DNA from: an uncultured Holophagales bacterium
Lineage (GTDB): Bacteria > Acidobacteriota > Thermoanaerobaculia > Multivoradales > UBA5704
NCBI GenBank assembly: GCA_963842525.1
Contig: CAWJGT010000009.1
Location: 1,248,001-1,312,000 of the forward strand
Direction: 5' to 3'
Length of the DNA stretch: 64,000 nt
The position numbers and the translations under genes were made by a program. Shown piece after piece: positions 7,926 to 24,179 of this stretch; positions within the stretch are counted from its first letter, which is position 1; the number at the start of each line of letters is the position of its first letter. The notes beneath the pieces are model-generated. The model was not told the origin of the DNA and did no database searches. It saw only the letters and a list, made by a program, of their open reading frames with translations.

Positions 7926-8687
7926 ATGCGAGTCGTCATCGTCACCGGTGGCGCTGCCGGAATCGGCCGCGCCACCGCCCGCCGCTTCGCCCGGGACGGC
8001 GCCCGGGTGGCGGTCTGGGACGTCAAGGCGGAGGACCCGGAGGCGCTCTGCGCCGAGCTGCGCGAGGCCGGCGGGGGGGCCGTGTTCCAGCAGGTCGACG
8101 TGACGGACGCGGCGGCCGTCGAAGCCGCGGTGGCCGCCGTGGTCGAGCGCTGGGGGCGGATCGACGTGCTGGTCAACAACGCCGGGATCGTGCGCGACGG
8201 CCAGCTCGTCAAGTGGAAGGACGGGCAGAAGATTTCCGAGATGAGCGAGCGGGACTTCGACGCCGTGGTCTCGGTCAACCTCAAGGGGGTTTTCCTCTGC
8301 ACACGCGCCGTGGCGCCGCACATGATCGCCGGCGGCGGCGGTGTGATTTTGAATGCCTCGTCGGTGGTCGGGCTCTACGGCAACTTCGGCCAGACCAACT
8401 ACGCTGCGACCAAGGCGGGTGTCGTCAACATGACCCGCACCTGGGCGCGCGAGCTGGGCCGGTACAAGATCCGGGTGAACGCCGTGGCCCCGGGGTTCAT
8501 CGCCACGGAGATGGTCCGGGCCATGCCTGAAAAGATCCTGAGCAACATGGTGGAGCACACGCCGATCGGCCGCATGGGGGAGCCGGAGGACATCGCCGAG
8601 GCCTATTTCTGGCTTGCCTCGGATGCCGCCGGCTTTGTCCATGGTACGGTCCTCTCCGTGGACGGCGGCCTGGTGATCGGTACTTGA
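7926..8687 (+). CDS. fabG: SDR oxidoreductase, FabG/acetoacetyl-CoA reductase-like
   Basis: TGGAAGIG, NNAGI, GNFGQTNYAATK, VAPGFIATEM. Confidence 0.8.
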   Translation: MRVVIVTGGAAGIGRATARRFARDGARVAVWDVKAEDPEALCAELREAGGGAVFQQVDVTDAAAVEAAVAAVVERWGRIDVLVNNAGIVRDGQLVKWKDGQKISEMSERDFDAVVSVNLKGVFLCTRAVAPHMIAGGGGVILNASSVVGLYGNFGQTNYAATKAGVVNMTRTWARELGRYKIRVNAVAPGFIATEMVRAMPEKILSNMVEHTPIGRMGEPEDIAEAYFWLASDAAGFVHGTVLSVDGGLVIGT

Positions 8688-9502
8688 GAGCCTTCACTCC
8701 CCGTGCGCCGGGCCTTCTGACCCACCGCGTCACCGGCCAGGGGGAGCCGTTGCTGCTGCTCAACGGCGCGCTGATGAGCATCGCGGCGTGGCAGCCGGTG
8801 GTGCCCGCGCTCGAACCTCTCTTCAAGGTCGTGCGCTGCGACTTCCGCGGGCAGCTCTTCTCGCCGGGCGAGGCCCCGCCGGACTTCGGCGCGCATGTGG
8901 CGGACGTGCTCGCGGTGCTCGACCATCTCGGGCTCGACCGGGTGCACGTGGCCGGCGTCTCCTTCGGATCGCTCGTGGCGCTGCGGCTCGCGGCGGAGCA
9001 TCCCGGCCGGATCGCTTCCGTGGCCGCGATCACTTCGACCGAGCGCATCAAGGACGAGACCTGGCGCGACCTCGACGAGCTGCGGGACGCCTGCAGGGCG
9101 GCCGCCGCCGGCGGCGACCCCCGGCGCATCTTCGACCTCACCCTCCCGATGTACAGCGCCGGCTACAGGAGCACGCAAGGCGAGAGCCTGGCCCTGCAGC
9201 GGGATTGGATCCAAGCGCTGCCCGAGGTCTGGTTCCGGGGGATCGCGGCCCTTCTTGCCGCGGTCGAGGGGCTCGACATGCGGCCCGACCTGCCACGCAT
9301 CCAATGCCCGGTGCTGGTCGTGGCCGCGGAGGAGGACACCACGTTCCCCCTGGAGCACTCGCGGGCGCTGGCCGGGGCGATCTCCGGGGCTCGGCTCGTG
9401 GTGGTGCCCGGCGTGGGCCACGGGATGGTCATCGAAAAGCCGGACCGCCTCGGCGAGATCCTCGCGTCCTTCTTCGGCCCGCGCCGCAGGGTCCAGGTGT
9501 GA
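8684..9502 (+). CDS. Alpha/beta hydrolase
   Basis: GVSFG nucleophile elbow, DFRGQ, C-terminal GHG. Confidence 0.85.
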   Translation: MRAFTPRAPGLLTHRVTGQGEPLLLLNGALMSIAAWQPVVPALEPLFKVVRCDFRGQLFSPGEAPPDFGAHVADVLAVLDHLGLDRVHVAGVSFGSLVALRLAAEHPGRIASVAAITSTERIKDETWRDLDELRDACRAAAAGGDPRRIFDLTLPMYSAGYRSTQGESLALQRDWIQALPEVWFRGIAALLAAVEGLDMRPDLPRIQCPVLVVAAEEDTTFPLEHSRALAGAISGARLVVVPGVGHGMVIEKPDRLGEILASFFGPRRRVQV

Positions 9503-11181: not shown

Positions 11182-11436
11182 GTGAGGCACTCGATCTCGA
11201 AAGACGTCCTCGACCGGTTCGCTCTCGGCCACGCCACTCCCCAGGAGAGGAAGGCCATTGCCGTCCACCTCCTCCACGGCTGTGACATCTGTGCCAAGAC
11301 GTTGCGGGCCGTGGCCTGGCCTGGGGCAGCGAAACGCGACCGGATCTCCGCCCGGGATGAACCCGAGAGCCCTCCGGGCCGTATGAAGAGAGGGAGCGGA
11401 CGAAATAGAACCTCGTCCGGCGTCACTCCAAGGTGA
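11182..11436 (+). CDS. Small protein with zf-HC2/ZAS-like HLxxGCxxC motif
   Basis: LDRFALGHATPQERKAIAVHLLHGCDIC; GGAGG RBS before the GTG. Confidence 0.6.
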   Translation: MRHSISKDVLDRFALGHATPQERKAIAVHLLHGCDICAKTLRAVAWPGAAKRDRISARDEPESPPGRMKRGSGRNRTSSGVTPR

Positions 11437-11484
11437 GGGGATGAGCGCGCCGTCCGCGTTCATCCTGGCAAGGAGGTAAGCACC

Positions 11485-11772
11485 GTGGCACAGCGAATTG
11501 CGGAACCCGGCCTGGATCGTTGGTCGGCAGGGTTTGCCCTGCGTGAGGAGAGCCCGATCATCGTCGCCCATCTCGCGGAGGGATGCCCATCCTGCACCGC
11601 GGGGCTCGAAGTGTTCCACCAGGTCGACGCGCCGGACCCGGCGCGCCAGGCCGTCCTCGAGCTCTTCGAGCGCGAGCTCCTCTCGACCCTCCAGGCGTCG
11701 GGCAGCTCCGTGCAGGCGCTCCACGCCGCCCTGGCGGGGATCGCGCTGAGCGGCGAAAAGCGCGCCGATTAG
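11485..11772 (+). CDS. Small protein with zf-HC2/ZAS-like HLxxGCxxC motif
   Basis: IIVAHLAEGCPSC; AAGGAGG RBS before the GTG. Confidence 0.6.
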   Translation: MAQRIAEPGLDRWSAGFALREESPIIVAHLAEGCPSCTAGLEVFHQVDAPDPARQAVLELFERELLSTLQASGSSVQALHAALAGIALSGEKRAD

Positions 11773-11877
11773 ACCTACCCTCCTGTCCCTCTCCCTGCCG
11801 CCTCGCGCGAGGCAGGGAGAGGGGCTTTGTCGGACATCCGCAGCAAAGTCAGCTCCTCTCGCTCCTCTCCCTTTGTG

Positions 11878-11906
11878 TTGACGCTACAGGTGTTTCCCTA
11901 TAGCAT
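11878..11906 (+). promoter_or_regulatory. Sigma70-like promoter upstream of the Cys/Thr repeat gene
   Basis: TTGACG-N17-TAGCAT. Confidence 0.55.
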
Positions 11907-12073
11907 CTGAACAACACTTGAATAACGTGTTCTGAGCCGGATATGCAAATACGAGCACAAGCGTACCCGAGCACTCAGCCCTCGGTCCGTTCGCCTCCAT
12001 GACGGCTTTCCTCTTGGTGCTCCGATCCCAGCCCTCGACGAGACCAACCACCATTTCTCATAGGGGATGAATC

Positions 12074-13612
12074 GTGAATCCATTTACCCGGTTTGTGCAG
12101 GGCCCGCTGACTCAGGACCTGTGTAGCGGGGGGGCCGTCACGGCCGGCGGCCCCACAGTCTGCGGCGGCATCCGGACTTGCGGCGGCTGTCCTGGCGGCG
12201 AGATCACCGCCGCATCGCTTTGTGACATCGTGACCTGCGGCGGCCCCACAGCCTGTGGCGGCATCCGCACCTGCGGCCAGCTCACCTGCGGCGGGCCCAC
12301 GGAGTGCGGCATCGACACCTGTGGCCGGACCTGCCTCATCACCTGTGGTGGTCCGACCTGGTGCGGCGGCATTCAGACCTGCGGCCAGACGTGCGCCCAG
12401 ACCTGTCAACAGATCACTTGCGGCGGGCAGACCAACTGCGGCGGTGTGCGCACCTGTGGCGAGACCTGCCACCACCTCACCTGCGGCGGGCAGACGAACT
12501 GCGGCGGTGTCCAGACCTGCGGCCAGACCTGCATCCTGATCACCTGCGGCGGCGGGCAGACCAACTGCGGCGGTGTGCGCACTTGCGGCGAGACCTGCCA
12601 GATCACCTGTGGTGTGCCGACGCAGTGCGGTGGTGTGCGCACCTGTGGCGAGACCTGCCAGATCACCTGCGGTGGGCAGACGCAGTGCGGTGGCATCCAG
12701 ACCTGTGGCGAGACCTGCCAGAAGATCACCTGCGGCGGACCGACCGAGTGCGGTGGCATCGAGACCTGCGGCCACACCTGCTCTCCGGCCATCACCTGCG
12801 GCGGCGCGACCGAATGCGGCGGCATCCGGACCTGCGGCGAGACCTGCCAGAAGATCACCTGCGGCGGCGCGACCGAATGCGGTGGCATCCGGACCTGCGG
12901 CCAGACCTGCTCCCCCGAGATCACCTGCGGCGGGCCGACGGAGTGCGGTGGCATCCGGACCTGCGGCCAGACCTGCAATCAGATCACCTGTGGCGGACCG
13001 ACCCAATGCGGCGGCATCCAGACCTGCGGCCATACCTGCTTGCCCGCCATCACCTGCGGCGGACCGACGGAGTGCGGCGGCATCCGGACCTGCGGCCAGA
13101 CCTGCCACCAGATCACCTGTGGCGGACCGACCCAGTGCGGCGGCGTCGAGACCTGCGGCCATACCTGCTCGCCCATGATCACCTGCGGCGGGAAAACCGA
13201 ATGCGGCGGCATCCAGACCTGCGGTCAGACTTGCCAGATGATCACCTGTGGCGGGAAGACGGAGTGCGGCGGCATCGAGACCTGCGGCCGGACCTGCTCT
13301 CCCGCCATTACCTGTGGCGGGAAGACCGAGTGCGGTGGCATCCAGACCTGCGGCGAGACCTGCCAACCGATCACCTGCGGAGGGAAAACGCAGTGTGGCG
13401 GCATTGAGACGTGCGGGCCGGCCTGCCCTCCGGGCACCTTCGGGCCCGAGCATACCTGCGGCATCATCTGCCTCCCCGAGGAGAAGTCCGAAAAGGCCGG
13501 AGGCCCCATCACACAGGGTCCCATGACCCAATGTGCTGGCGTCCAGACCTGCGGCTGCCCCGGAGGTGGCAAAGAGGGCGGCTCGGGCGGCAAGGGGGAG
13601 AAGGGCGCGTGA
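12074..13612 (+). CDS. Giant Cys/Thr/Gly tandem-repeat protein; putative RiPP (lanthipeptide-like) precursor
   Basis: 512-aa open frame; about 19 full and 2 degenerate ITCGGxTxCGG[IV]xTCGxTC units with synonymous codon variation; AGGGG RBS before the GTG; directly upstream of kinase, HopA1-like and LanC genes. Confidence 0.8.
   Translation: MNPFTRFVQGPLTQDLCSGGAVTAGGPTVCGGIRTCGGCPGGEITAASLCDIVTCGGPTACGGIRTCGQLTCGGPTECGIDTCGRTCLITCGGPTWCGGIQTCGQTCAQTCQQITCGGQTNCGGVRTCGETCHHLTCGGQTNCGGVQTCGQTCILITCGGGQTNCGGVRTCGETCQITCGVPTQCGGVRTCGETCQITCGGQTQCGGIQTCGETCQKITCGGPTECGGIETCGHTCSPAITCGGATECGGIRTCGETCQKITCGGATECGGIRTCGQTCSPEITCGGPTECGGIRTCGQTCNQITCGGPTQCGGIQTCGHTCLPAITCGGPTECGGIRTCGQTCHQITCGGPTQCGGVETCGHTCSPMITCGGKTECGGIQTCGQTCQMITCGGKTECGGIETCGRTCSPAITCGGKTECGGIQTCGETCQPITCGGKTQCGGIETCGPACPPGTFGPEHTCGIICLPEEKSEKAGGPITQGPMTQCAGVQTCGCPGGGKEGGSGGKGEKGA
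12230..13432 (+). repeat. Coding tandem repeat, mostly 60-66 bp units, with a 129-bp higher-order unit in the 3' half
   Basis: Recurrent atcacctgcggcgg...acctgcggc...acctgc; 21-aa and 22-aa units alternate from about 12662. Confidence 0.95.
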
Positions 13613-13630
13613 TGTAAGCTGACCTGCGAT

Positions 13631-13673
13631 GCGGAGGCCCGGTCCCGCACTCTCTGGCGGGGCCGGGCTCCGT
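13631..13673 (+). terminator. GC-rich stem-loop between the precursor and kinase genes (attenuator or mRNA stabiliser)
   Basis: gcggaggcccggtcccgc-actctctg-gcggggccgggctccgt; no strong U-tract. Confidence 0.55.
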
Positions 13674-13701
13674 CTCCGGGCCTTCGGACATCGAACGAGA
13701 C

Positions 13702-14800
13702 ATGCTGGTCCAACCCGAAAACGTCGTCCATTACCTGGCCGAGCGCCGGCTGCTGACCTTGCAGTCGGTGGTCGAAGGCGACTTCATGGTCTTCGATCAG
13801 TCGAGCCGGAACTACAACCTCAAGGTGCTGCGGCGGAAGTCCCCCGGCTTCTTCATCAAGCAGGTGCGCACCCGCACATCCGCCTACACCCTCACGCTGG
13901 AGCGGGAGGCGAAGTGTTACGAGATGGCGGCGCGCAACCCCCGCTTCGGCGCCATGGCCGCGCTCCTGCCCAGGTGCCACCACTGGGACGCGGCGAGGAC
14001 GATCCTCGTCCTCGAGATGCTTCCCGATGCCGAGAGCCTCTGGGAGCACCATCAGCGGCTGGGCCGGTTCCCGCGCGAGATCGCGGAGCCTCCAGGGAGA
14101 CAAGCTCGGCACCTACCACCGCCAGGCGGAGCTGTTCTTCCCCGCCCTGGAGGAGCTGCACCTGTTCGAGAAAAAGCTCCCCTGGATCCTCTCGATCCAC
14201 GAGACCCATCCGCAGTACCTGAGCCAGATGAGCCAGGGCAACGCCCAGCTCCTGCAGATCCTGCAGGACTATCCCGGGCTCACCCGCGCCCTCGACGCCC
14301 TCAAGCGCTCCTGGGTCTTCCGCGGGCTGATCCACGGCGACATCAAGTGGGAGAACCTCCTCCTGTACCGCGAGCGCCCGGAGGACCCGCCGGACATCCG
14401 GGTCATCGACTGGGAGATGGCCGACCTCGGCGACGAGTGCTGGGACACGGGGGCGATCTTCCAGGCCTACCTGAGCTTCTGGATCTTCATGCTGCCTCTC
14501 AGCCCCACCGTCAGCCTGGAGCAGGCATCGGAGATCTCGCCGTTCAAGGGCGAGGACATGCAGGTGGCCCTGGCCGCCTTCTGGACCCGCTATGCAGCGG
14601 CCCGCGGCTTCGGCCGCGCCACGTCGCGCCGCTACCTCGAACGGTGCATGGCCTGCGCCGCCGCGCGCATGGTCCAGACGGCCTACGAAGGGATCCAGCG
14701 GTCGCCCCAGATCACGCCCCAGGCGCTCTGCCAGCTCCAGATGAGCATGAACATCCTGCGCGATCCGGCCGCTGCCGTCGGCCAGATGGTGGGGCTGTGA
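13702..14800 (+). CDS. APH/phosphotransferase-family kinase (LanK-like), one frameshift at about 14090
   Basis: N-lobe SSRNYNLKV...FFIKQ joins C-lobe LIHGDIKWENLL...VIDWEMADLGD if one C is removed from gagcctccag (14086-14095). Confidence 0.85.
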
Positions 14801-14813
14801 GGAGGGCCGCACG

Positions 14814-15881
14814 TTGAGCACGATGGACTGGCAGGAGGCCCTCGACCAGGTCTTCGCGGCCATCCGCATCGAGTCGCCGCACGAGCTGACGTTCGCGGAG
14901 AGGAAATTCGCCGTACCGGCGGCGGCCGCCCCGGCCGGTAATGGCGCGGCGGGTGCGGCTGGTGCGGCGAAGGTGCCGCTGGTGGAGCTGCTCACCGACG
15001 TCCTCTACCGCTATGTCTACAGCCGGCCCTTCAAGCCGCCGCTTCCACCGCCTTCTCCGGACGGCCAGGAGCGCCAGGACTTCAGGCTCGACCCCGAGCT
15101 CAGCGCCGTCCTCTCCGCCGCCAACGCCTCGCGCGACCGCTGGGAGCACGGCTGGACCATCGGACAGATCCACTCCTCCGGCCAGATCACGGCGCAGCGC
15201 GGGAGCCGCTCGCGGTCGCTCTGGCCGGGCCAGTTCCTGAGCAAGGACGGTCCGGGTGCGCGCCCGCGGCCGGGGGCGCAGATCAGCATCTTCTATCCCC
15301 GCGAGTCCACGTCGCTCCAGCGCGGCTTCTACTACTGCTTCGGCGAGACCCCCGAGGACGAGAGCTTCACCCTCGGCCTGGTGCGGATCTACTGGCACGT
15401 CGGGCTCGCCGGGGCGCCGGAGCTGGTGCGGTCGCTCTCCGCGCGGCTCAACTTCTTCCAGGTGCCGTTCCGCATGAAGTGCTCGGTCATGCCCAGCCAG
15501 TACGACCGCACGGACGTGGCGGTCATCTACCTCGCCAAGCGCCTCTTCCCCTTCGTCGCCGACCTGCTCCAGGAGGTCTATCCCGCCGTGCGCCCGCACC
15601 TCGGGCCCGAGGTGCCGTTCTTCACCTGGCGCCTGGCCCCCGGGGTCGGCATCGCCGAGGACCCGGCCAACGGCGAGAGCTTCGGCCAGCACCGCTGCCG
15701 TCTCCTGGCGGAGTGCTGCTGGAGCTGCTTCCTGCGCGGCGATCAGGAAACGGCGTCGCGGCTGGCGGAGCTGCGCGTCGTGGCCGGCGCCCAGGGCACG
15801 GACCCGGAGCGCTTCCACCTCAACGCCGGCTCCCTGGACTGCTACGAGGCGTGCGCGACGGGGGAGGAATCATGGTCATGA
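14814..15881 (+). CDS. HopA1-like protein (LanY-type phospho-Ser/Thr lyase)
   Basis: LSAAN...GW, GFYYCFG, VRIYWHV, VPFRMK, YDRTDVAVIY, LAPGVGIAEDP, SFGQHRC; GGAGG RBS. Confidence 0.85.
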   Translation: MSTMDWQEALDQVFAAIRIESPHELTFAERKFAVPAAAAPAGNGAAGAAGAAKVPLVELLTDVLYRYVYSRPFKPPLPPPSPDGQERQDFRLDPELSAVLSAANASRDRWEHGWTIGQIHSSGQITAQRGSRSRSLWPGQFLSKDGPGARPRPGAQISIFYPRESTSLQRGFYYCFGETPEDESFTLGLVRIYWHVGLAGAPELVRSLSARLNFFQVPFRMKCSVMPSQYDRTDVAVIYLAKRLFPFVADLLQEVYPAVRPHLGPEVPFFTWRLAPGVGIAEDPANGESFGQHRCRLLAECCWSCFLRGDQETASRLAELRVVAGAQGTDPERFHLNAGSLDCYEACATGEESWS

Positions 15882-17200
15882 CCGAGACGCCCGCGATGCC
15901 TGGCGGCGCTGCCAGCCCGCAGCCGGCCGCGGAGCACCGGGCGCTCTTCCTGGAGACCGCGGCTTCGCTGGGCGCGCGGATCTGCCGCGACGCGCTGTGG
16001 GGCGACGGCGTCTGCAACTGGATCGGCTTCGCCATGGAGAGCCTGGGCGGGCGCTGGCGGCACGCCCACCGCGCCTATGGCGGCGAGCTCTATGGGGGGA
16101 CGAGCGGCATCGCCCTCTTCCTCGCCCGCCTGCACGCGGTGACCGGCGAGCGCATGTTCAAACGCACCGCACTGGGGGCGATCCGCCATGCCCTGGAGCA
16201 CGGCGCAAAAGAGATCGTGCCGACGGCGCGCATCGGCGCCTACAGCGGTTGCACCGGCCTCGCCGACGCAGCTCTCCAGATCGCCGTCCTCCTGGAGGAC
16301 GAGTCGCTGCGGGCGCCGGCCCTGGCTCTCCTGGAGGAAGCGGCGAGCGGCGAGACCGGCCGCAACTTCGACCTGCTGGCGGGCTCTGCCGGAGCGATCC
16401 CGCTGCTGCTGCGGGCCCACGCCGGGCACGAAGGTCAACCGGGGCCGGCTTCCCTGCAAGAGGCGGCGGTGCGCCTGGGCGACGACCTCCTGGCCGCCGC
16501 GGCGCGTGCCGACGACCGCTGGTCCTGGGGAGAATTCGGCATGCCGGGGGCGAAGCAGAAGGACAACCTCCTCGGCTTCTCCCACGGCGCCGGCGGCATC
16601 GGCTGGGCCCTGCTGGAGCTCCACCAGGCCACCGGCGAGGCGCGGTTCCGCGAGGCCGGCGAAGGGGCGTTCCGCCACGAGCGGCACTGGTTCGACCCAG
16701 AGCACGGCAACTGGCCGGACCTGCGGGACCCCGAGGTCTCGGGCGCGGCGGCAGCCTCGGACGTCCCGGCCTTCATGACCGCCTGGTGCCACGGCGCGGC
16801 GGGCCTCGGCTTGTCCCGCCTGCGCGCCTGGGAGCTGTCCGGCGACGAGGAGTGCCGGCGCGAGGCCGAGGTGGCCGTCGACACCACCCTGGAGAACCTC
16901 CGCGGCGGCACGGAGATGAGCCAGACCAACGACTCTCTGTGCCACGGCAGGGGAGGGAACTGCGAGACGCTGATCTACGGCTCCCAGGTCCTGGGCCGTC
17001 CCGAATGGCTGCAACGGGCCGAGGAGATCGGCCTCCGGGAGATCGAGACCTGCGCCGCGCAGCGCCTGCCCTGGCCCTGCGGCACCTACGGCAGCGTCGA
17101 AGTGCCCGGCCTCCTGCTGGGCCTCGCCGGCATCGGCTATTTCTATCTCCGCCTCGCCGACCCGGCCGGCACGCCGTCGGTCCTGATCCCGCTGCCGTAA
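15872..17200 (+). CDS. lanC: Stand-alone LanC-like lanthionine cyclase
   Basis: LYGGTSGIALFL, DLLAGSAG, GFSHGAGG, AWCHGAAG, SLCHGRGG, GLLLGLAGIG. The start (ATG 15872 or 15878) overlaps the end of the HopA1-like gene. Confidence 0.9.
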   Translation: MVMTETPAMPGGAASPQPAAEHRALFLETAASLGARICRDALWGDGVCNWIGFAMESLGGRWRHAHRAYGGELYGGTSGIALFLARLHAVTGERMFKRTALGAIRHALEHGAKEIVPTARIGAYSGCTGLADAALQIAVLLEDESLRAPALALLEEAASGETGRNFDLLAGSAGAIPLLLRAHAGHEGQPGPASLQEAAVRLGDDLLAAAARADDRWSWGEFGMPGAKQKDNLLGFSHGAGGIGWALLELHQATGEARFREAGEGAFRHERHWFDPEHGNWPDLRDPEVSGAAAASDVPAFMTAWCHGAAGLGLSRLRAWELSGDEECRREAEVAVDTTLENLRGGTEMSQTNDSLCHGRGGNCETLIYGSQVLGRPEWLQRAEEIGLREIETCAAQRLPWPCGTYGSVEVPGLLLGLAGIGYFYLRLADPAGTPSVLIPLP

Positions 17201-17210
17201 CCTTCTTCGT

Positions 17211-17560
17211 GCATTCCGTTCCAATCGTGCACAACGATTCGGAAGCCGGCGGCGACGATTCGCCCGCATCATCCTGAATCCCGTCTCCGTCTCGCCACTA
17301 TTCGGTCATTCTGAAGGAGCATTCGACCTGTGCTCCCTCACATCAGAGGTTGGCTGTAGGATTCAAGAGAATGTCTCCTGCACATAGGGATCTGAGTCTG
17401 CGCCATTCGCAAACATTCCTGCGCATTCGGGAGCTCCGATGGTGGCATTGGACCTGGGCTCGGCAGCATTGGGATCGGCCGGCGTGTCATTTGTGCCGTG
17501 GTCCCAATGATTGGGAGCTCCTGAAGAAAGATTCCGCTCCCAAAGCGTCGTGCACGGACG
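17211..17560. repeat. Degenerate 21-bp-period array
   Basis: ATT cores at 17237, 17258, 17300, 17321, 17405, 17447, 17468, 17489, 17510 and 17531; ATC/ATA variants at 17342 and 17384. Confidence 0.65.
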
Positions 17561-17692
17561 TGGCTCGGAATGTTTGGCCTTGCAGCCTGAATAACTACTC
17601 AGCTCGTCGGAAAAATCCGCTTTGCCAGACGAATGGCCGGGAATCCGAAACCGATGCTGCCAGGCACGAGACGAATGGTGCGTCAGGACGAG

Positions 17693-19411
17693 CTAACGCC
17701 TGCCCGCCGAGGTCCGGTTGCGGCTCGGCTTCGGCTTCTTCTTCCGGCGCCGCTTCGCCGCGAGCGCCGCGGTGGCTTCGTCACGGAGAGTCTGCGCCGG
17801 CTCGAAGTCCGGCGCTCCTTCGATCGCCTGCTCGGCGTGCGCCAGAGCGGCCTCAGTGTCTCCGAGATGAAAGAGGCAGAGCCCGACGTTGAACACGGTC
17901 GCCGGATTGGACCCGTAGAGAGCAACCGACTGGCGGAAGAAGGAGAGGGCGTCCTCGTAGCATTGGATTTCCGTGAGCAGCACGCCAAGGTGGAAGGGCA
18001 GGTCGAGCGACTCGCGGATCGGGAAATAGACCCTCCAGATCTCGTGGACCGCGTGGTAGACCTCGACACGGAGGAGGTCCGGTGCCGTGCCCACCTGCTT
18101 CATCAGCGCGGGGAAGCAGCCCAGGAGGATGTTCGAGTCCCAGCCCGACAGGCGCAGCCAAGTCAGGAGCTCTTCCAGAGGGAGCTCTTCGTACCCCCTC
18201 TCGACGCTCTTCTTGAGATCGAAAAAGTCGTCCGGCCCCAGGCGCTCGATCGCATCATCGAAGGCTAGACGGGTCTCCAACAGGCCGCCCGGGGGCGTGC
18301 CGAACAGGCCGGCGACGATGCTCAGGCTGGAGTACAGGTGCGTCGTGCTCAGGAAGTCGCCGCCCTGGTGGACGAACCACCGGCCGAAGGCGTGGTAATT
18401 GACCATCATCGAGAAGCTGCCATGGACCGCCAGGCCCGGCTCGCTACGGCCGGTCAGCAGCTCCTCGCGGCTGAAGCCCTTGTCGCCGGAGAGCAGCAGG
18501 AGCCGGTTGTCCGACAGCCGGGCGAGCTGGCGCGCGCCACGGATGGCAGCGCAGGGGAAGAGAAAGGTCGTGTCGTCCAGGCTCGCCACGTACTCCTGGA
18601 GGATTCGGTCGAGCTCCGGATCGCCATAATAGTCGGCCGGGGCGGGACACTCCTCCCAGGAGACCACGATCCGCCCGAGCATCCCGGAGTCTTCGAGATC
18701 GATCTCTCCCTCCGGCGCGGCGAGCGTCGCCAGGCATTCGAAAAACTTTCCATCGTGGACCGAGAAGACGTCCTGGGGGATGCCGTCGAAGACGTAGTTC
18801 GCCAGAACGATGAGCGGATTGCGCAGCGTTTGCGGCGAGAGGACTTCCCCCGAGCAGGTGAGGCGGATCTCGAAGTCCTCTCCGGCGTCGTAGCGCGCAA
18901 AGTCGAGCACTCCGGATTCGACGAACGACTGGAGGTCCGGATGATTGCGCAGGTGGTCGAGGTTGTTCTCCGTGAAGTCGGTCAGGACATAGCGGACCGG
19001 CACATGGCTCAGCGGCGACCGGCCGAGCAGGTCAAGGAAGCGGTTGAGGAACAGGTACCCGAAGCGGCCGGCCCCGCAGCCGAGCTCGACGATGTAGACC
19101 GGATGCCGGAGGTCGAGCGGCGCGAACGAGCCCCGCTGCGGAGACGTCGTCCCCGAGCAGTCACGCAGCCAGCCGAGGACCACCTTGGCGTAGGAGTCAG
19201 CGATCCAGCCGTTGCTGGTGATGTAGTGAGGGACCTGCCCCTCGGTCCAGGCCCGGACCCCCTGCACGTCGAAGAACTTCCGCTGGAGCTGCCAGAGGAG
19301 CGACTCGGACAGGCGCTTGCCGTGTTCGAGGACGTGACTGGCGACGACCGTCTCGGCGGGGCCGCTCTCCGGATCAGGCATGGGCTCAGCGTCTACGAAG
19401 TCTCGTCGCAA
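17693..19411 (-). CDS. SAM-dependent methyltransferase (MidA/NDUFAF7-like) with C-terminal TPR
   Basis: VYIVELGCGAGRFG, ANYVFDGIPQD; TPR-like helices at the C-terminus. The start may be ATG 19381. Confidence 0.8.
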   Translation of the reverse strand: MRRDFVDAEPMPDPESGPAETVVASHVLEHGKRLSESLLWQLQRKFFDVQGVRAWTEGQVPHYITSNGWIADSYAKVVLGWLRDCSGTTSPQRGSFAPLDLRHPVYIVELGCGAGRFGYLFLNRFLDLLGRSPLSHVPVRYVLTDFTENNLDHLRNHPDLQSFVESGVLDFARYDAGEDFEIRLTCSGEVLSPQTLRNPLIVLANYVFDGIPQDVFSVHDGKFFECLATLAAPEGEIDLEDSGMLGRIVVSWEECPAPADYYGDPELDRILQEYVASLDDTTFLFPCAAIRGARQLARLSDNRLLLLSGDKGFSREELLTGRSEPGLAVHGSFSMMVNYHAFGRWFVHQGGDFLSTTHLYSSLSIVAGLFGTPPGGLLETRLAFDDAIERLGPDDFFDLKKSVERGYEELPLEELLTWLRLSGWDSNILLGCFPALMKQVGTAPDLLRVEVYHAVHEIWRVYFPIRESLDLPFHLGVLLTEIQCYEDALSFFRQSVALYGSNPATVFNVGLCLFHLGDTEAALAHAEQAIEGAPDFEPAQTLRDEATAALAAKRRRKKKPKPSRNRTSAGRR

Positions 19412-20502: not shown

Positions 20503-20986
20503 GGGCGCCTCCTTCAACCGTGGGCGAACTGCGGGCTTTCGGGCCTCTCGTCTCGCGGCCTTGTGGATTTCAGCGACTAGTGTAGCTCCAAATCCCCATG
20601 CCGGACAAGCTTTCCTCGGCAAAACACCCGGGCGCACCTATCCGGCGGAGCTTGCGGCGGAAACCCCGGGCGCCATTTCCGCGTACTCCTCGGCAAGGGG
20701 GAACAAGCCCATGACCATACAAAGCCATGTTCGCGCCGGCGGCAGCCCTTGGCTGGACTGAGCGTCCCGCTGCGAGGAGGTGAACGCCGATGAAGATGCA
20801 GAGCCATCTTCGTGCCGGTGCCATTCCCTGGGTCGATTGATCCGACGCGGGGCTTACGGCGACGGAGTCATCCGCCGTTTGCCGGGGTCACCGCCCAGAT
20901 CCTTCTCTGCGCTCAGGATGACACGACGGAACGGATGCCGGCCCCGGTTCATCCCGTTCCCTGGCAACGTTTCGAACACCCTGGAG

Positions 20987-23900
20987 CTACGCCGCCGGCC
21001 GCAGCTCCTCTTTCCGTTTCGGTGCCCGTTTCGGCAGCAGCCGCCGGAGCGCGTCCCTGATCCCCTCCACGCCGCGCAGGTCGTCGAAGATCGAATAAAA
21101 GACCGGCGTTGCCACCAGGGTCAGCAACAGCGAGAGGGTCTGGCCGCCGATCACGACCACGGCGATGGCGCGGCGCTCTTCGGCGCCCGGGCCGGTGCCG
21201 AGGGCGAGGGGCAGCATGCCGGCCACCAGTGCGAGGGTGGTCATCAGGATCGGCCGCAGGCGGTCGCGGTTGCCCTGGAGGATGGCCTGGCTGCGCTCCA
21301 TTCCCTGGGATCTGAGATTGTTCATGTGATCGATCTGCAGGATGGCGTTCTTCTTGACCACGCCGAAAAGGACCAGGATCCCCAAGGCTGAGTAGAGGTT
21401 CAGTGTGTTGCCGGTCGCCCAGAGGGAGACGAGGGCGAAGGGGATCGACAGCGGCAGCGAGAGAAGGATGGTCAGCGGGTGGATCAGGCTCTCGAACTGC
21501 GAGGCCAGGATCATGTACATGAAGGCGATCGAGAGCACCAGGGCCCAGACGCAGCTCACGGTAGGTCCGCGCGAGCTCCCGCCCGCGTCCGCCCACCGAG
21601 GTGGAATAGGCCGGGGGCAGGTTCATCCCGTCCACCGCCCTCTGGAGCGCAGCGAGCCGCTCGGCCAGGGCATAGCCGCGGTCCACGCCGCCGCGTACGC
21701 TCACCTGCCGCTGCCGGTCGAGCCGTTCGATCCGCGAGGCAATGGTGGACTCTTCGATCCGCACCAGGCTGTCGAGCCGGACGAGCCCGCCCCGTCCGCT
21801 CGGGACAGCGAGGCGCTGGATCGTCGCCGGGTCGTTGCGCGCTCCTTCAGCCAGCCGGATCGCGACGTCGTAGTCGTCGTTGACCCCGGCGTCGTAAAAC
21901 CGCGAGACGCGCGGGTCGCCGCCCACGAGGAGGCGGAGCGCCGTGGCGATGTCGGTCATCCGGACGTCCAGGTCCGCGGCGCGGGCACGGTCCACCTGAG
22001 CCCGCACCTCGGGCTTGTCGAGCTTGAGCGAGGTATCGATATCGACGAAACCTCCCATGTTGCGGGCGTTCTGGCGCAGCCGGTCGGCGTAGGCATAGAG
22101 CGTGTCGAGGTCGGGCCCGCGCAAGGCGAAATCCACTTCGAAGTTGCCGCCGCCGATGTCGAACCGCGTGGCGTTGCGCAGCACACAGCGCAGGTCCTTG
22201 TGCTTCGTGAGACGGCGCCGCACCTCGTCCATCACGTCGGCCTGCCTGTAGTTGCCGCGGAACGCCTCCAGGGGATCGAGCCGCAGCAGGCCGCGGGCGA
22301 GGCGCCCGAGCGAGAAGGTCCGCTCGCCGTGCGGGGTGAGCCGGACGAAGACGTTGCCCTGGTTGACCGCGCCGAGGAAAGAGGTGCCTGCGGTGGAGAG
22401 GACCATGCGCACGCCGCGGACCTGGCGCAGCTCGGCCTCGACCTCGCGCATGGCATCGTCCATGGAGGCGAGGCTCGTTCCCTCGGGCGCGTTGACGTTC
22501 ATTTCGAATTCGGATTCATCGACCTCGGCGGGCATGTACTCCACAGGGACGAGCCGGTAGAGCGGGACGGTGGCGGCCATCACGACCAGACAGGACACGG
22601 CCACGAGGCCCCGGTGGGCCACGGCCGCCGCCAGCAGCCGCTGGTAGGCGCTGTCGAGCCGGGCGTAGAAGCCGCGCCGGGAGCGCGCCTCTTCGCCGGG
22701 CGTCATGCGCAGCAGGCGCGCGCTCATCATCGGCGTCAGGGTGAAGGAGACGAGCAGGGAGATCAGCACTGCCGCCGCGGCCGTGATGCCGAACTGGAAG
22801 AGGAAGCGCCCGGCGACGCTCGACATGAAGGAGACGGGGATGAAGATCACCACCAGCGAGAAGGTCGTGGCCAGCACGGCGAAGCCGATCTCGGCCGTGG
22901 CCGCGCGCGCCGCCTCGAAGGTGGTCATCCGCTTTTCCTCGACGAAGCGGAAGACGTTTTCCAGCACCACGATGGCGTCGTCGATCACCACGCCGACCAT
23001 GAGCACCAGGGCCAGCATGGTGACGCTGTTGAGGGTGAAATCCAGGGCTTTCATGACGCCGAAGGTGGCGATGACCGAGGCCGGGATGGCCACGGCGGCG
23101 ATGACGGTCGAGCGCCAGCTCCGCATGAAGGCGAGCACCACCAGCGAGGCGAGGATGCTGCCCAGGATCAGGTGGAGGTCGATCTCGTGCAGGGCGGCAT
23201 AGATGTAGCGCGACTGGTCGCGGACGACCCGCAGCTCGATGTCCGCGGGGAGCTCGGTGCGGACCCGTTCCAGGGCCTCCTTGGCCCCCTCGATCACCTC
23301 GACCGTGTTCGCCCCCGACTGCCGCATCACTTCCAGGGTGACGGTCGGCACGCCGTCGAGCCGGACGACCGACCGCTGCTCCTTGGTGCCGTCCTCGGCG
23401 CGGCCGAGGTCGCGGATGCGGATCGGCTGGCCGCGGACCGTGCGGACCACAAGGTCGTCGAAGGCCCGCGGCTCGGTCAGCCGGCCCAGGGTGCGCACGG
23501 TCATTTCGCGCAGGGGGCCGGTGAGGTTGCCGCCGGGCACGCTGCTGTTCTGCCGCACGAGGGCGTCGCGCACCTCGGTGACGGGGATCTGGTAGGCCTC
23601 CAGACGGTCGGGCTCGAGCCAGACGTTGATCGCCCGCTCGAGGCCGCCGGCCAGGCGCACCTCGCCGACGCCCGACGCCCGCTCGACCTGTGGTTTTACG
23701 ACTTTGTCGGCGATCTCGGCGAGCTCCTCGATGGAGCGGGGGCCGGCGACCGCGACGATCAGGGCCGGCGTGACGTCGTTGTTGAACTTGGAGATCTCGG
23801 AAAGGAGAGCATTCTCGGGCAGGTCACCCGCCACGGAGGCCACCCGGTCGCGGACGTCCTCTGTCGCCGCGTCGATGTCGCGGTCGAGGCGGAAGGTGAT

Positions 23901-24179
23901 GAGCGTGAAGGAGACGCCCGCGGCGGAGATCGAGCGCAGCTCCTCGATCCCTGCGACGGTGTTGACCGCCTCCTCGATCTTCTGCGAGACCTCGGTCTCG
24001 ACCTCTTCAGGGGAGGCGCCCGGCAGGAAGATGCGGACGGTGACGGTGGGGAGGTCGACGGCGGGGAAGCGGTCGATGTCGAGCCCGGCATAGCTGGCCG
24101 CGCCGATCACCACCAGCCCAAGGATGAGCATGGCAGCGAAGACCGGCCGGCGGATGCAGATCTCGGCGAGCTTCTGCAC
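20987..24179 (-). CDS. RND efflux permease (AcrB/MdtBC family), paralogue 2; frameshift at about 21552
   Basis: [31 protein letters not shown]; the C-terminus is in ORF 20987..21559. Confidence 0.9.

Follow-up and report, generated by a model that had tools for sequence, protein, structure and literature searches.

Lanthipeptide synthesis by a kinase (LanK), a lyase (LanY) and a cyclase (LanC), known as class Vb, was reportedly characterised on the short peptide SmoA by Pei et al. 2022 (J Am Chem Soc, doi 10.1021/jacs.2c06808). Ding et al. (2024, PMC11186320) name mSmoA as the sole member of this class, and a 2025 review (PMC12328550) also places LanK/LanY/LanC systems there. According to these two sources, the SmoA enzymes make overlapping lanthionine or methyllanthionine rings, and the cyclase is needed for the overlap. 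Class Va lanthipeptides (lexapeptide, cacaoidin and pristinin) are described with LanK and LanY together with LanD and LanX, no LanC, and a C-terminal aminovinyl-methylcysteine. In addition, a RiPPER survey aimed at short peptides recorded a phosphotransferase with HopA1-like proteins in 96% of 1,340 cases and LanC-like cyclases near or fused to 20% of HopA1-like proteins, and a new lanthionine synthetase was proposed (Eyles et al. 2021, PMC8153245). Here we describe a locus with such enzymes in a 64,000-nucleotide stretch (hereafter the window) of contig CAWJGT010000009.1 from an uncultured Holophagales bacterium (assembly GCA_963842525.1), in which the first gene encodes a 512-residue repeat protein.

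The initial annotation had reported four co-oriented, closely spaced genes including a 512-residue Thr/Cys repeat protein, and we found them as described, all on the + strand within 11878-17200; in the genome's own coordinates the four genes span C9:1260074-1265200. We refer to them as A, K, Y and C; the genome G003, of the same genus and with an intact kinase ortholog, served as the reference for K. The features are as follows.

12074-13612, + strand: gene A, putative class Vb precursor, a 512-residue Cys/Thr/Gly repeat protein (open reading frame; GTG start behind AGGGGA)
12074-12124, + strand: leader-like N-terminus of A, residues 1-17, MNPFTRFVQGPLTQDLC (ortholog conservation, complex model)
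12233-13438, + strand: repeats TCGGxTxCGG[IV]xTCGxTCxx[IL], about 20 of about 21 residues (Tandem Repeats Finder, unit list, column counts)
13702-14088, + strand: N-terminal part of K, APH-type LanK, 129 codons (88% identity to G003 kinase residues 1-129)
14089, + strand: extra C shifting the K frame (alignment with G003; absent from two covering contigs)
14090-14800, + strand: C-terminal part of K with HGDIKWEN and IDWE, 236 codons and stop (88% identity to G003 kinase residues 130-365)
14814-15881, + strand: Y, putative HopA1-type phospho-Thr lyase, LanY (PF17914, PDB match)
15878-17200, + strand: C, stand-alone LanC-type cyclase, LanM-C-terminal-like, 440 residues (PF05147; its ATG overlaps the Y stop as ATGA)

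We propose that A is the substrate of K, Y and C, dehydrated at Thr and bridged many times by methyllanthionine, and we put the probability of this reading at roughly 70%. A split kinase/lyase dehydratase working with a Zn-type LanC beside a protein-sized Thr/Cys substrate had already been suggested from the sequence, and this suggestion gains support from conserved synteny, a Thr:Cys ratio close to 1:1 and a model of the leader bound to the kinase.

Comparison with described lanthipeptide enzymes

The profile searches suggested with the initial annotation placed all three enzymes above the Pfam cut-offs: K matched PF01636 (APH) with 31.7 bits (1.7e-7, cut-off 23.2), Y matched PF17914 (HopA1) with 112.6 bits (2.3e-32, cut-off 22.7), and C matched PF05147 (LANC_like) with 184 bits (3.8e-54, cut-off 23.2). 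The motifs it had listed are likewise present, namely HGDIKWEN and IDWE in K, GIAEDP...SFGQHRC in Y, and GxxHG (as GFSHG), WCHG and CHG in C. K residues H211, D213, N218, D236 and E238 are invariant across 27 homologs. Y also matched the PDB entry 9dk1_B, annotated 'Lyase', at 2.8e-10, and AEDPxxGESFGxxR is conserved among its homologs.

The cyclase had been described as class I-type, and here we came to a different assignment. C aligned with positions 540-932 of TIGR03897 (2.9e-82, with 276.9 bits below the cut-off of 304) and with residues 641-972 of the class II enzyme LicM2 (6st5; 2.2e-16), with GFSHG, WCHG and CHG aligned, and is therefore closer to the C-terminal cyclase domain of a class II LanM. 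LanM enzymes of about 900-1100 residues combine a dehydratase with a cyclase, whereas C stands alone with 440 residues and no dehydratase domain, so that dehydration would fall to K and Y. The locus also differs from class I, which combines LanB and LanC, because no LanB is found beside C; the PF04738 (LanB) matches, at C3:1392860-1394854 and C9:1526001-1527944, lie more than 260 kb from the locus. The genome contains about eleven LANC_like loci when split genes are counted once, including a LanM-sized frame at C9:1008988-1010067.

The closest described system is class Vb. In the SmoA system as in the window locus, an APH-type kinase encoded on its own is followed by a HopA1-type lyase and then by a LanC, and the precursor core contains Cys and Ser/Thr. 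We found the APH kinase with its HxDxxxxN catalytic motif and an Asp for metal binding, the HopA1 lyase, a LanC whose Cys-Cys-His Zn ligands distinguish Vb from Va, and a precursor at the head of the operon, as in class Vb, whereas the 512-residue A is far from the short precursors of that class (tens to about 200 residues). A has about 20 repeats and 86 Cys, against 97-194 residues and 4-8 Cys in actinobacterial precursors, and it lacks the leader domain of about 115 residues carried by those of Streptomyces L100 and Actinomadura L099. The Y proteins of the actinobacterial K-Y-C loci (L092, L099-L101) are 29-33% identical to that of the window.

HopA1-LanC clusters with peptide Families 11/20 and 22 (PMC8153245) resemble the window-type loci in combining HopA1, a phosphotransferase and a near or fused LanC; we found no mention there of precursors of hundreds of residues, although the figures or supplements of that paper might contain one. 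Class Va shares the route of dehydration by a kinase and a HopA1-type lyase, but a LanC is present at the window locus and the conserved module consists only of A, K, Y and C. The architecture had initially been put forward as unrecognised among characterised clusters. This no longer holds for the enzymes, since LanK, LanY and LanC together define class Vb, characterised on SmoA, and the HopA1-LanC association was noted in 2021 (PMC8153245). The enzyme architecture is thus already known and characterised, and the giant repeat substrate looks new: our literature search found no giant repeat precursor of K-Y-C systems, although Pei et al. 2022 or the supplements of PMC8153245 might mention long ones. 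Finally, a Thermoanaerobaculia cluster with a GMC (glucose-methanol-choline) oxidoreductase has been reported to form thiazole at Thr-Cys pairs (PMC13083261); thiazole formation at the Thr-Cys pairs of A was considered and set aside, as there is no GMC oxidoreductase among the four conserved genes.

A as the candidate substrate of K, Y and C

A consists of a 53-residue head, about 20 units of roughly 21 residues and a tail rich in Gly, Lys and Glu, and contains 86 Cys, 86 Thr and 122 Gly among its 512 residues. Tandem Repeats Finder gave a period of 63 nucleotides with 16.4 copies and 78% matches, and by our own count 19 units begin with TCG[GV], with degenerate ones besides. Each 21-residue repeat contains four Thr and four Cys. 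The protein matched nothing in Pfam or NCBIfam, and a signal peptide is absent from its sequence. The C-termini of several orthologs (L023, L025, L027, L035, L037 and L039) carry short charged repeats, such as GDKPGDKPGDKP, KKPRRKRAAKK and EKEKEKEEDKGKK.

Long open reading frames on the opposite strand and in alternative frames cross the same DNA, for example one of 518 residues at 11975-13531 (-), which raises the question of whether A is a gene or simply an open frame across GC-rich repetitive DNA. We regard the latter as hardly credible. Nine clean units keep the same Thr, Cys and Gly residues in their invariant columns but encode them with differing synonymous codons (ACC/ACT/ACG, TGC/TGT and GGC/GGT/GGG/GGA), and because the constant columns vary in this way we take the reading frame to be real. 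Conserved orthologs of the protein occur in 18 other genomes, where its N-terminus, start codon and Shine-Dalgarno-like site (AGGGGA/GGGAGG) are kept down to a Y identity of 46% and it always comes first in the operon. Judged from the sequence, the long frames in other registers are by-products of the repeat.

We then examined how closely A is tied to the enzymes. A scan for the Y motif, with one genome per species, yielded 80 loci, and K, Y and C occur in that order at 77 of them; L088 and L097 are cut at a contig end, and L090 is without C. Close relatives of the window locus come from metagenome-assembled genomes of Thermoanaerobaculia (Acidobacteriota). Where Y is at least 46% identical, a window-type repeat protein stands directly upstream of K in 19 of 22 loci, and in the remaining three (L024, L028 and L029) the contig ends inside K. 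The proposed search for Thr/Cys-rich frames upstream of the triad thus returned the A-K-Y-C layout in 19 loci. In the reverse direction, a profile of A matched four of 401 sampled genomes of the class (2 of 134 genera), and in all four A adjoins K-Y-C. Window-type relatives of A measure 246-604 residues. In the source assembly (9.95 Mb, 34 contigs, 96% complete), A and Y are each single-copy, and the genes are tightly spaced, with 89 nucleotides between A and K, 13 between K and Y, and a 4-nucleotide overlap of Y and C. Y and C form one open frame at 18 of 79 loci (L028, L029, L031, L032, L034-L039, L043, L072, L085, L089, L098-L100 and L102); these fusions include close relatives of the window locus and a Streptomyces.

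Database searches with A itself gave few relatives. A word-based protein search found only four, and phmmer against 1.84 billion representatives gave 50 matches at E <= 0.001 and 11 at <= 1e-10; the weaker matches P0006, P0009, P0010 and P0017 were rejected as unrelated repeat proteins. Four database homologs of A had no Pfam or NCBIfam match (a precomputed PF27846 tag on P0002 was not reproduced), and a search of the ESM Atlas with homolog P0004 gave no usable match. P0005, of 178 residues, carries the same repeats (TCGGPTQCGGIHTCGYSCQP) behind a different, classical-looking lanthipeptide leader, MKKLKLDLDALEVDSF..., which, as far as its sequence goes, speaks for a lanthipeptide core, yet with other enzymes. 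Tandem proteins with TCGGxTxCGG[IV]QTC repeats are encoded at L103:5967-7532 and 7968-9302 and also in L104 and L105, all metagenome contigs with 51-53% GC; these proteins have signal-peptide-like N-termini and a globular C-terminal part.

Next, we compared the numbers of Thr and Cys in 51 putative precursor cores (19 window-type and 32 of the N-domain type described below; five matches were dropped). The Thr/Cys ratio had a median of 1.00 with an interquartile range of 0.92-1.06 (r 0.975), and the core of A has 86 Cys and 85 Thr. The partial correlation of Thr with Cys given length was 0.85, and that of Ser was -0.37. Two quite different repeat types follow the same 1:1 rule. We also analyzed co-variation in 231 anchored units from 19 proteins. 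Retention or loss of Thr17 goes along with that of Cys2 in the following unit (80/3/31/27 across 141 neighbouring pairs; odds ratio of 23), and in units of the form 'TAGG...GxGC' this pair is gone and three Thr and three Cys are retained.

These results also bear on the possibility that A contains many cores and, once K, Y and C have modified it, is cut by an unlinked protease into about 20 small lanthipeptides, with one or a few from each repeat. Multi-core precursors are known among RiPPs (peptides made by the ribosome and modified after translation), the units of about 21 residues are near-identical, and in some orthologs (L032 and L037) Gly-rich linkers separate them. However, the repeats of A abut directly with no conserved cleavage motif between them, neither a protease nor a transporter turns up repeatedly next to the 80 loci, and the joint behaviour of Thr17 and the next Cys2 suggests bridges that cross unit borders. 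We consider such processing unlikely, and return to A as one multiply bridged substrate.

In the 19 orthologs, residues G10, P11, T13 and Q14 of the leader are invariant. We modelled K and Y in complex with the N-terminal 60 residues of A, taking all three from G003 and using a separate alignment for each. The model had an ipSAE (interaction prediction score from aligned errors) of 0.77, against 0.00 for the best of three controls; of 80 solved complexes 58 attained that mark, as did 2 of 110 mismatched pairs. The runs of our model shared at least 26% of contacts, and the pLDDT (predicted local distance difference test) of the partner was at least 40. The modelled contacts join A residues 1-13 and 16-18 (G003) to K residues 186, 257-287 and 339-362. 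The PDB contains no sequence relative of K, which makes it less likely that the model reproduces a solved complex. This prediction supports leader binding by K, and CaoK is stated in a review (PMC12328550) to bind its leader peptide.

The chemistry, fold and full-length product that we infer would be as follows. The 17-residue N-terminus of A would dock on the C-terminal lobe of K; by analogy with related enzymes, K would phosphorylate the Thr residues of the repeats, Y would eliminate the phosphate to give dehydrobutyrine, and the Zn-dependent C would add Cys thiols to dehydrobutyrine to give methyllanthionine. The equal numbers of Thr and Cys would permit up to about 80 bridges. The pairing that we infer from the repeat sequence is Thr1 to Cys8, Thr6 to Cys14, Thr13 to Cys18, and Thr17 to Cys2 of the next unit, which is the simplest scheme that leaves no residue over and places each Thr N-terminal to its Cys, and which agrees with both the co-variation and the units with three Thr and three Cys. 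Such overlapping rings would chain the units into one thioether-laced rod, possibly a beta-solenoid with one coil per repeat.

A beta-solenoid is a plausible fold for A, as judged from an AlphaFold2 model with three short strands per unit and a pLDDT of 70-85 in the repeats. In a structural search of the model against representatives, beta-solenoids ranked top: curli CsgA (8c50_A; Z 25.4, root-mean-square deviation (rmsd) 9.0, 321 residues aligned), the two-partner secretion (TPS) adhesins EtpA (8vba_A; Z 21.7, rmsd 3.9, 415 aligned) and HMW1 (2odl_A; Z 19.5, rmsd 3.2, 266 aligned), and the beta-helical antifreeze protein 3p4g_A (Z 18.9, rmsd 3.4, 274 aligned). These likenesses come with 7-10% sequence identity and are resemblances of predicted fold only. 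To our knowledge, neither CsgA, the TPS adhesins nor the antifreeze protein has thioether bridges.

Several points count against A as a thioether-bridged substrate. The AlphaFold2 model, built from a 19-row alignment, is middling (mean pLDDT 68.2, predicted template modelling score 0.60), Foldseek found no match to it in the PDB at E <= 0.001, and programs of this kind tend to yield solenoids for repeats. In the complex model, the fold of the partner is uncertain (pLDDT 40-42), and the use of our own alignments lies outside the calibration of the tool. The precursors and their repeat units are related, so that p-values for the stoichiometry and co-variation overstate the case. Of the four Thr per unit, three directly precede a Cys, and neighbouring Thr and Cys cannot bridge each other, so that long-range or overlapping rings are required; we know of no LanC that has been shown to handle about 80 sites. 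The LxmK equivalog NF038156, for the class Va kinase, scored 22.8 and 33.5 bits against the two parts of K, with a cut-off of 315. In the flanks of the 80 loci no family recurs widely except the precursors, and no protease, transporter or exporter recurs; since only precursor families do so, the inherited unit appears to be A-K-Y-C without a linked protease or exporter. In a search of sequencing runs, the best run contained 0.23 of the sampled words, and no RNA run contained the stretch. Finally, no K, Y or C was found within 8 kb of the secreted-looking repeat proteins on the 51% GC contig, and the repeat fold may exist without thioethers as a self-standing Cys-rich module.

The last point leads to another explanation, in which A is a Cys-rich structural or metal-binding solenoid held by disulfides or metal, and K, Y and C act on something else. 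The secreted-looking proteins that share the repeat and the resemblance of the A model to the antifreeze beta-helix both speak for it, and a Cys content of 17% recalls metallothioneins and Cys-rich antifreeze beta-helices. However, it offers no reason for the 1:1 ratio of Thr to Cys, the leader-kinase model passes its controls, and the synteny of A with K-Y-C is strict across phyla despite unrelated flanks. Moreover, disulfides would be unlikely in the cytoplasm, where A should stay because it has no signal peptide. We therefore judge this explanation very unlikely and continue to favour A as the substrate of K, Y and C.

The split K gene of this assembly also weighs on the negative side. The extra C at 14089 is the only lesion of K relative to G003, and if the frameshift were real, the system would be dead in this strain. 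The locus might then be a decaying remnant, with A made unmodified or not at all; a kinase homolog with one internal stop codon does occur in Pyrinomonadaceae (L042:6389-7480). To address this, contigs from four soil or rhizosphere runs were aligned to 13650-14850, leaving uncovered parts unused, and both of the two contigs that cover 14089 omit the base. One (X1 record 3) differs from the window by one letter over 152 bases (about 99% identical), and the other (X2 record 9) is about 92% identical over 1149 bases. The two parts of K are otherwise intact, with 88% identity to G003. Other genes of the same assembly are also fragmented, as expected of indel errors: a LanB-type gene is in five pieces (C3:1392860-1394854), and three LanC-like genes are in two pieces each (C3:1348527-1349649, C25:89264-90363 and C3:245553-246591). 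These multiply broken genes suggest frequent indel errors. Given that the covering contigs omit the base and that other genes are fragmented, the K frameshift is probably an assembly error rather than a private mutation, and decay of the locus seems quite improbable.

A second family of putative giant precursors

At 38 loci the open reading frame upstream of K belongs to another precursor family, whose members are mostly giant (300-1269 residues, up to 137 Cys). An N-terminal domain of about 115 residues is conserved among them; it is followed by the motif F-[LF]-[EQ]-G-P-I-x-Q-[DE]-F and then by Cys/Thr/Pro-rich repeats of the CPT, CPP or CPS type, and in most members the domain, the motif and the Cys-rich stretch lie in one protein. 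The family occurs in Acidobacteriota, Dormiibacterota, Udaeobacter, Ktedonobacteraceae, Chitinophagaceae, Longimicrobium and Proteobacteria; examples just upstream of K are found at L046, L047, L051, L053, L055, L059, L066, L068, L069, L073, L074, L076 and others. The N-terminus of the window A, RFVQGPLTQDL, has the same motif without the domain, and in distant precursors F-x-[EQ]-G-P-[LI]-x-Q is likewise found ahead of the Cys-rich part. At L030:6455-6844 and L033:5739-6110, the leader domain is a separate frame of 124-130 residues directly before a window-type A, which, on sequence grounds, we read as a split form of the long leader.

Shorter forms occur in actinobacteria. In Streptomyces L100 and Actinomadura L099, the domain is followed by a short Cys core, with 184-194 residues in total, and the Nonomuraea precursors (L092 and L101) have 97-119 residues with FLQG or FLRG. 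Ten distant precursors had no match in Pfam or NCBIfam. The AlphaFold2 model of the leader domain, a small beta structure with a mean pLDDT of 67.7, gave no convincing fold match (best structural Z 3.5). A search for the domain in the window's genome gave no matches, an empty answer that, at 96% completeness, is not proof of absence.

Taken at its fullest, our proposal is that the 512-residue A becomes a single thioether-laced beta-solenoid with dozens, up to about 80, of methyllanthionine rungs, a protein material stapled by covalent bonds within the reducing cytoplasm, and that it represents one branch of a wide and overlooked giant class Vb 'lanthioprotein' family (300-1269 residues, as many as 137 Cys) spread among the Acidobacteriota, Verrucomicrobiota, Chloroflexota, Gemmatimonadota and Proteobacteria of soil. 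We hold this wider version only tentatively and would not back it at even odds.

Flanking elements and significance

Two further features may concern expression of the locus.

11878-11906, + strand: sigma-70-like promoter match TTGACG-17-TAGCAT, 168 nucleotides upstream of the A start (consensus match only)
13610-13693, + strand: attenuator-like hairpin between A and K, core GC stem 13638-13667 (minimum free energy, shuffles, orthologs)

The promoter-like element of the initial annotation was recovered as the sole sigma-70-like match in 11400-17700, agreeing at 9 of 12 positions (shuffle mean 0.3), which on its own is weak evidence for a promoter. The hairpin has a minimum free energy of -53.7 kcal/mol (z -3.88), and none of 200 shuffled sequences folded equally well. 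Most of the 19 orthologous loci have a long GC-rich hairpin at the same place between A and K, with differing sequences. A hairpin between a lanthipeptide structural gene and its enzyme genes is usual, and the one found here agrees with partial termination once A has been transcribed.

Two small open reading frames (11182-11436 and 11485-11772, +) that lie a short way upstream of the promoter-like site have HxxxCxxC-like motifs (HLLHGCDICAKTL and AHLAEGCPSCTAGL) reminiscent of anti-sigma zinc fingers; they had no Pfam or NCBIfam match and are not conserved beside related loci. On the other side, at 20949-24179 (-), a frame of 1076 residues encodes an RND-type (resistance-nodulation-division) efflux pump that loses pump-like sequence near its C-terminal end; the pump sequence resumes in another frame, in an overlapping 190-residue frame at 20987-21559 (-), which is probably a further frameshift. 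The 80 K-Y-C loci contain no counterpart of any of the window's seven flanking proteins. The alpha/beta hydrolases, the two small Cys-motif frames, a TPR (tetratricopeptide repeat) protein and the RND pump were accordingly excluded from the proposed system.

The usual view of lanthipeptides is of small peptides whose cores span tens of residues and hold a handful of rings. Tools built for short peptides miss giant precursors, so that a sizeable share of HopA1-LanC clusters may have been assigned the wrong substrate. The 21-residue unit, with its four predicted rings, would be a minimal test piece for enzymology and for the engineering of stapled scaffolds. If a protein with 86 Thr and 86 Cys is indeed the substrate, then one set of RiPP enzymes has been pushed to protein scale. 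This would introduce questions concerning how a 17-residue leader could let the kinase, lyase and cyclase work in an orderly way at about 80 sites, whether a repeat fold inside the cell can be stapled by thioethers in place of disulfides, and what purpose such an indestructible rod would have. Our guess is that the product is not a small antibiotic but a highly stable protein with a structural or surface role.

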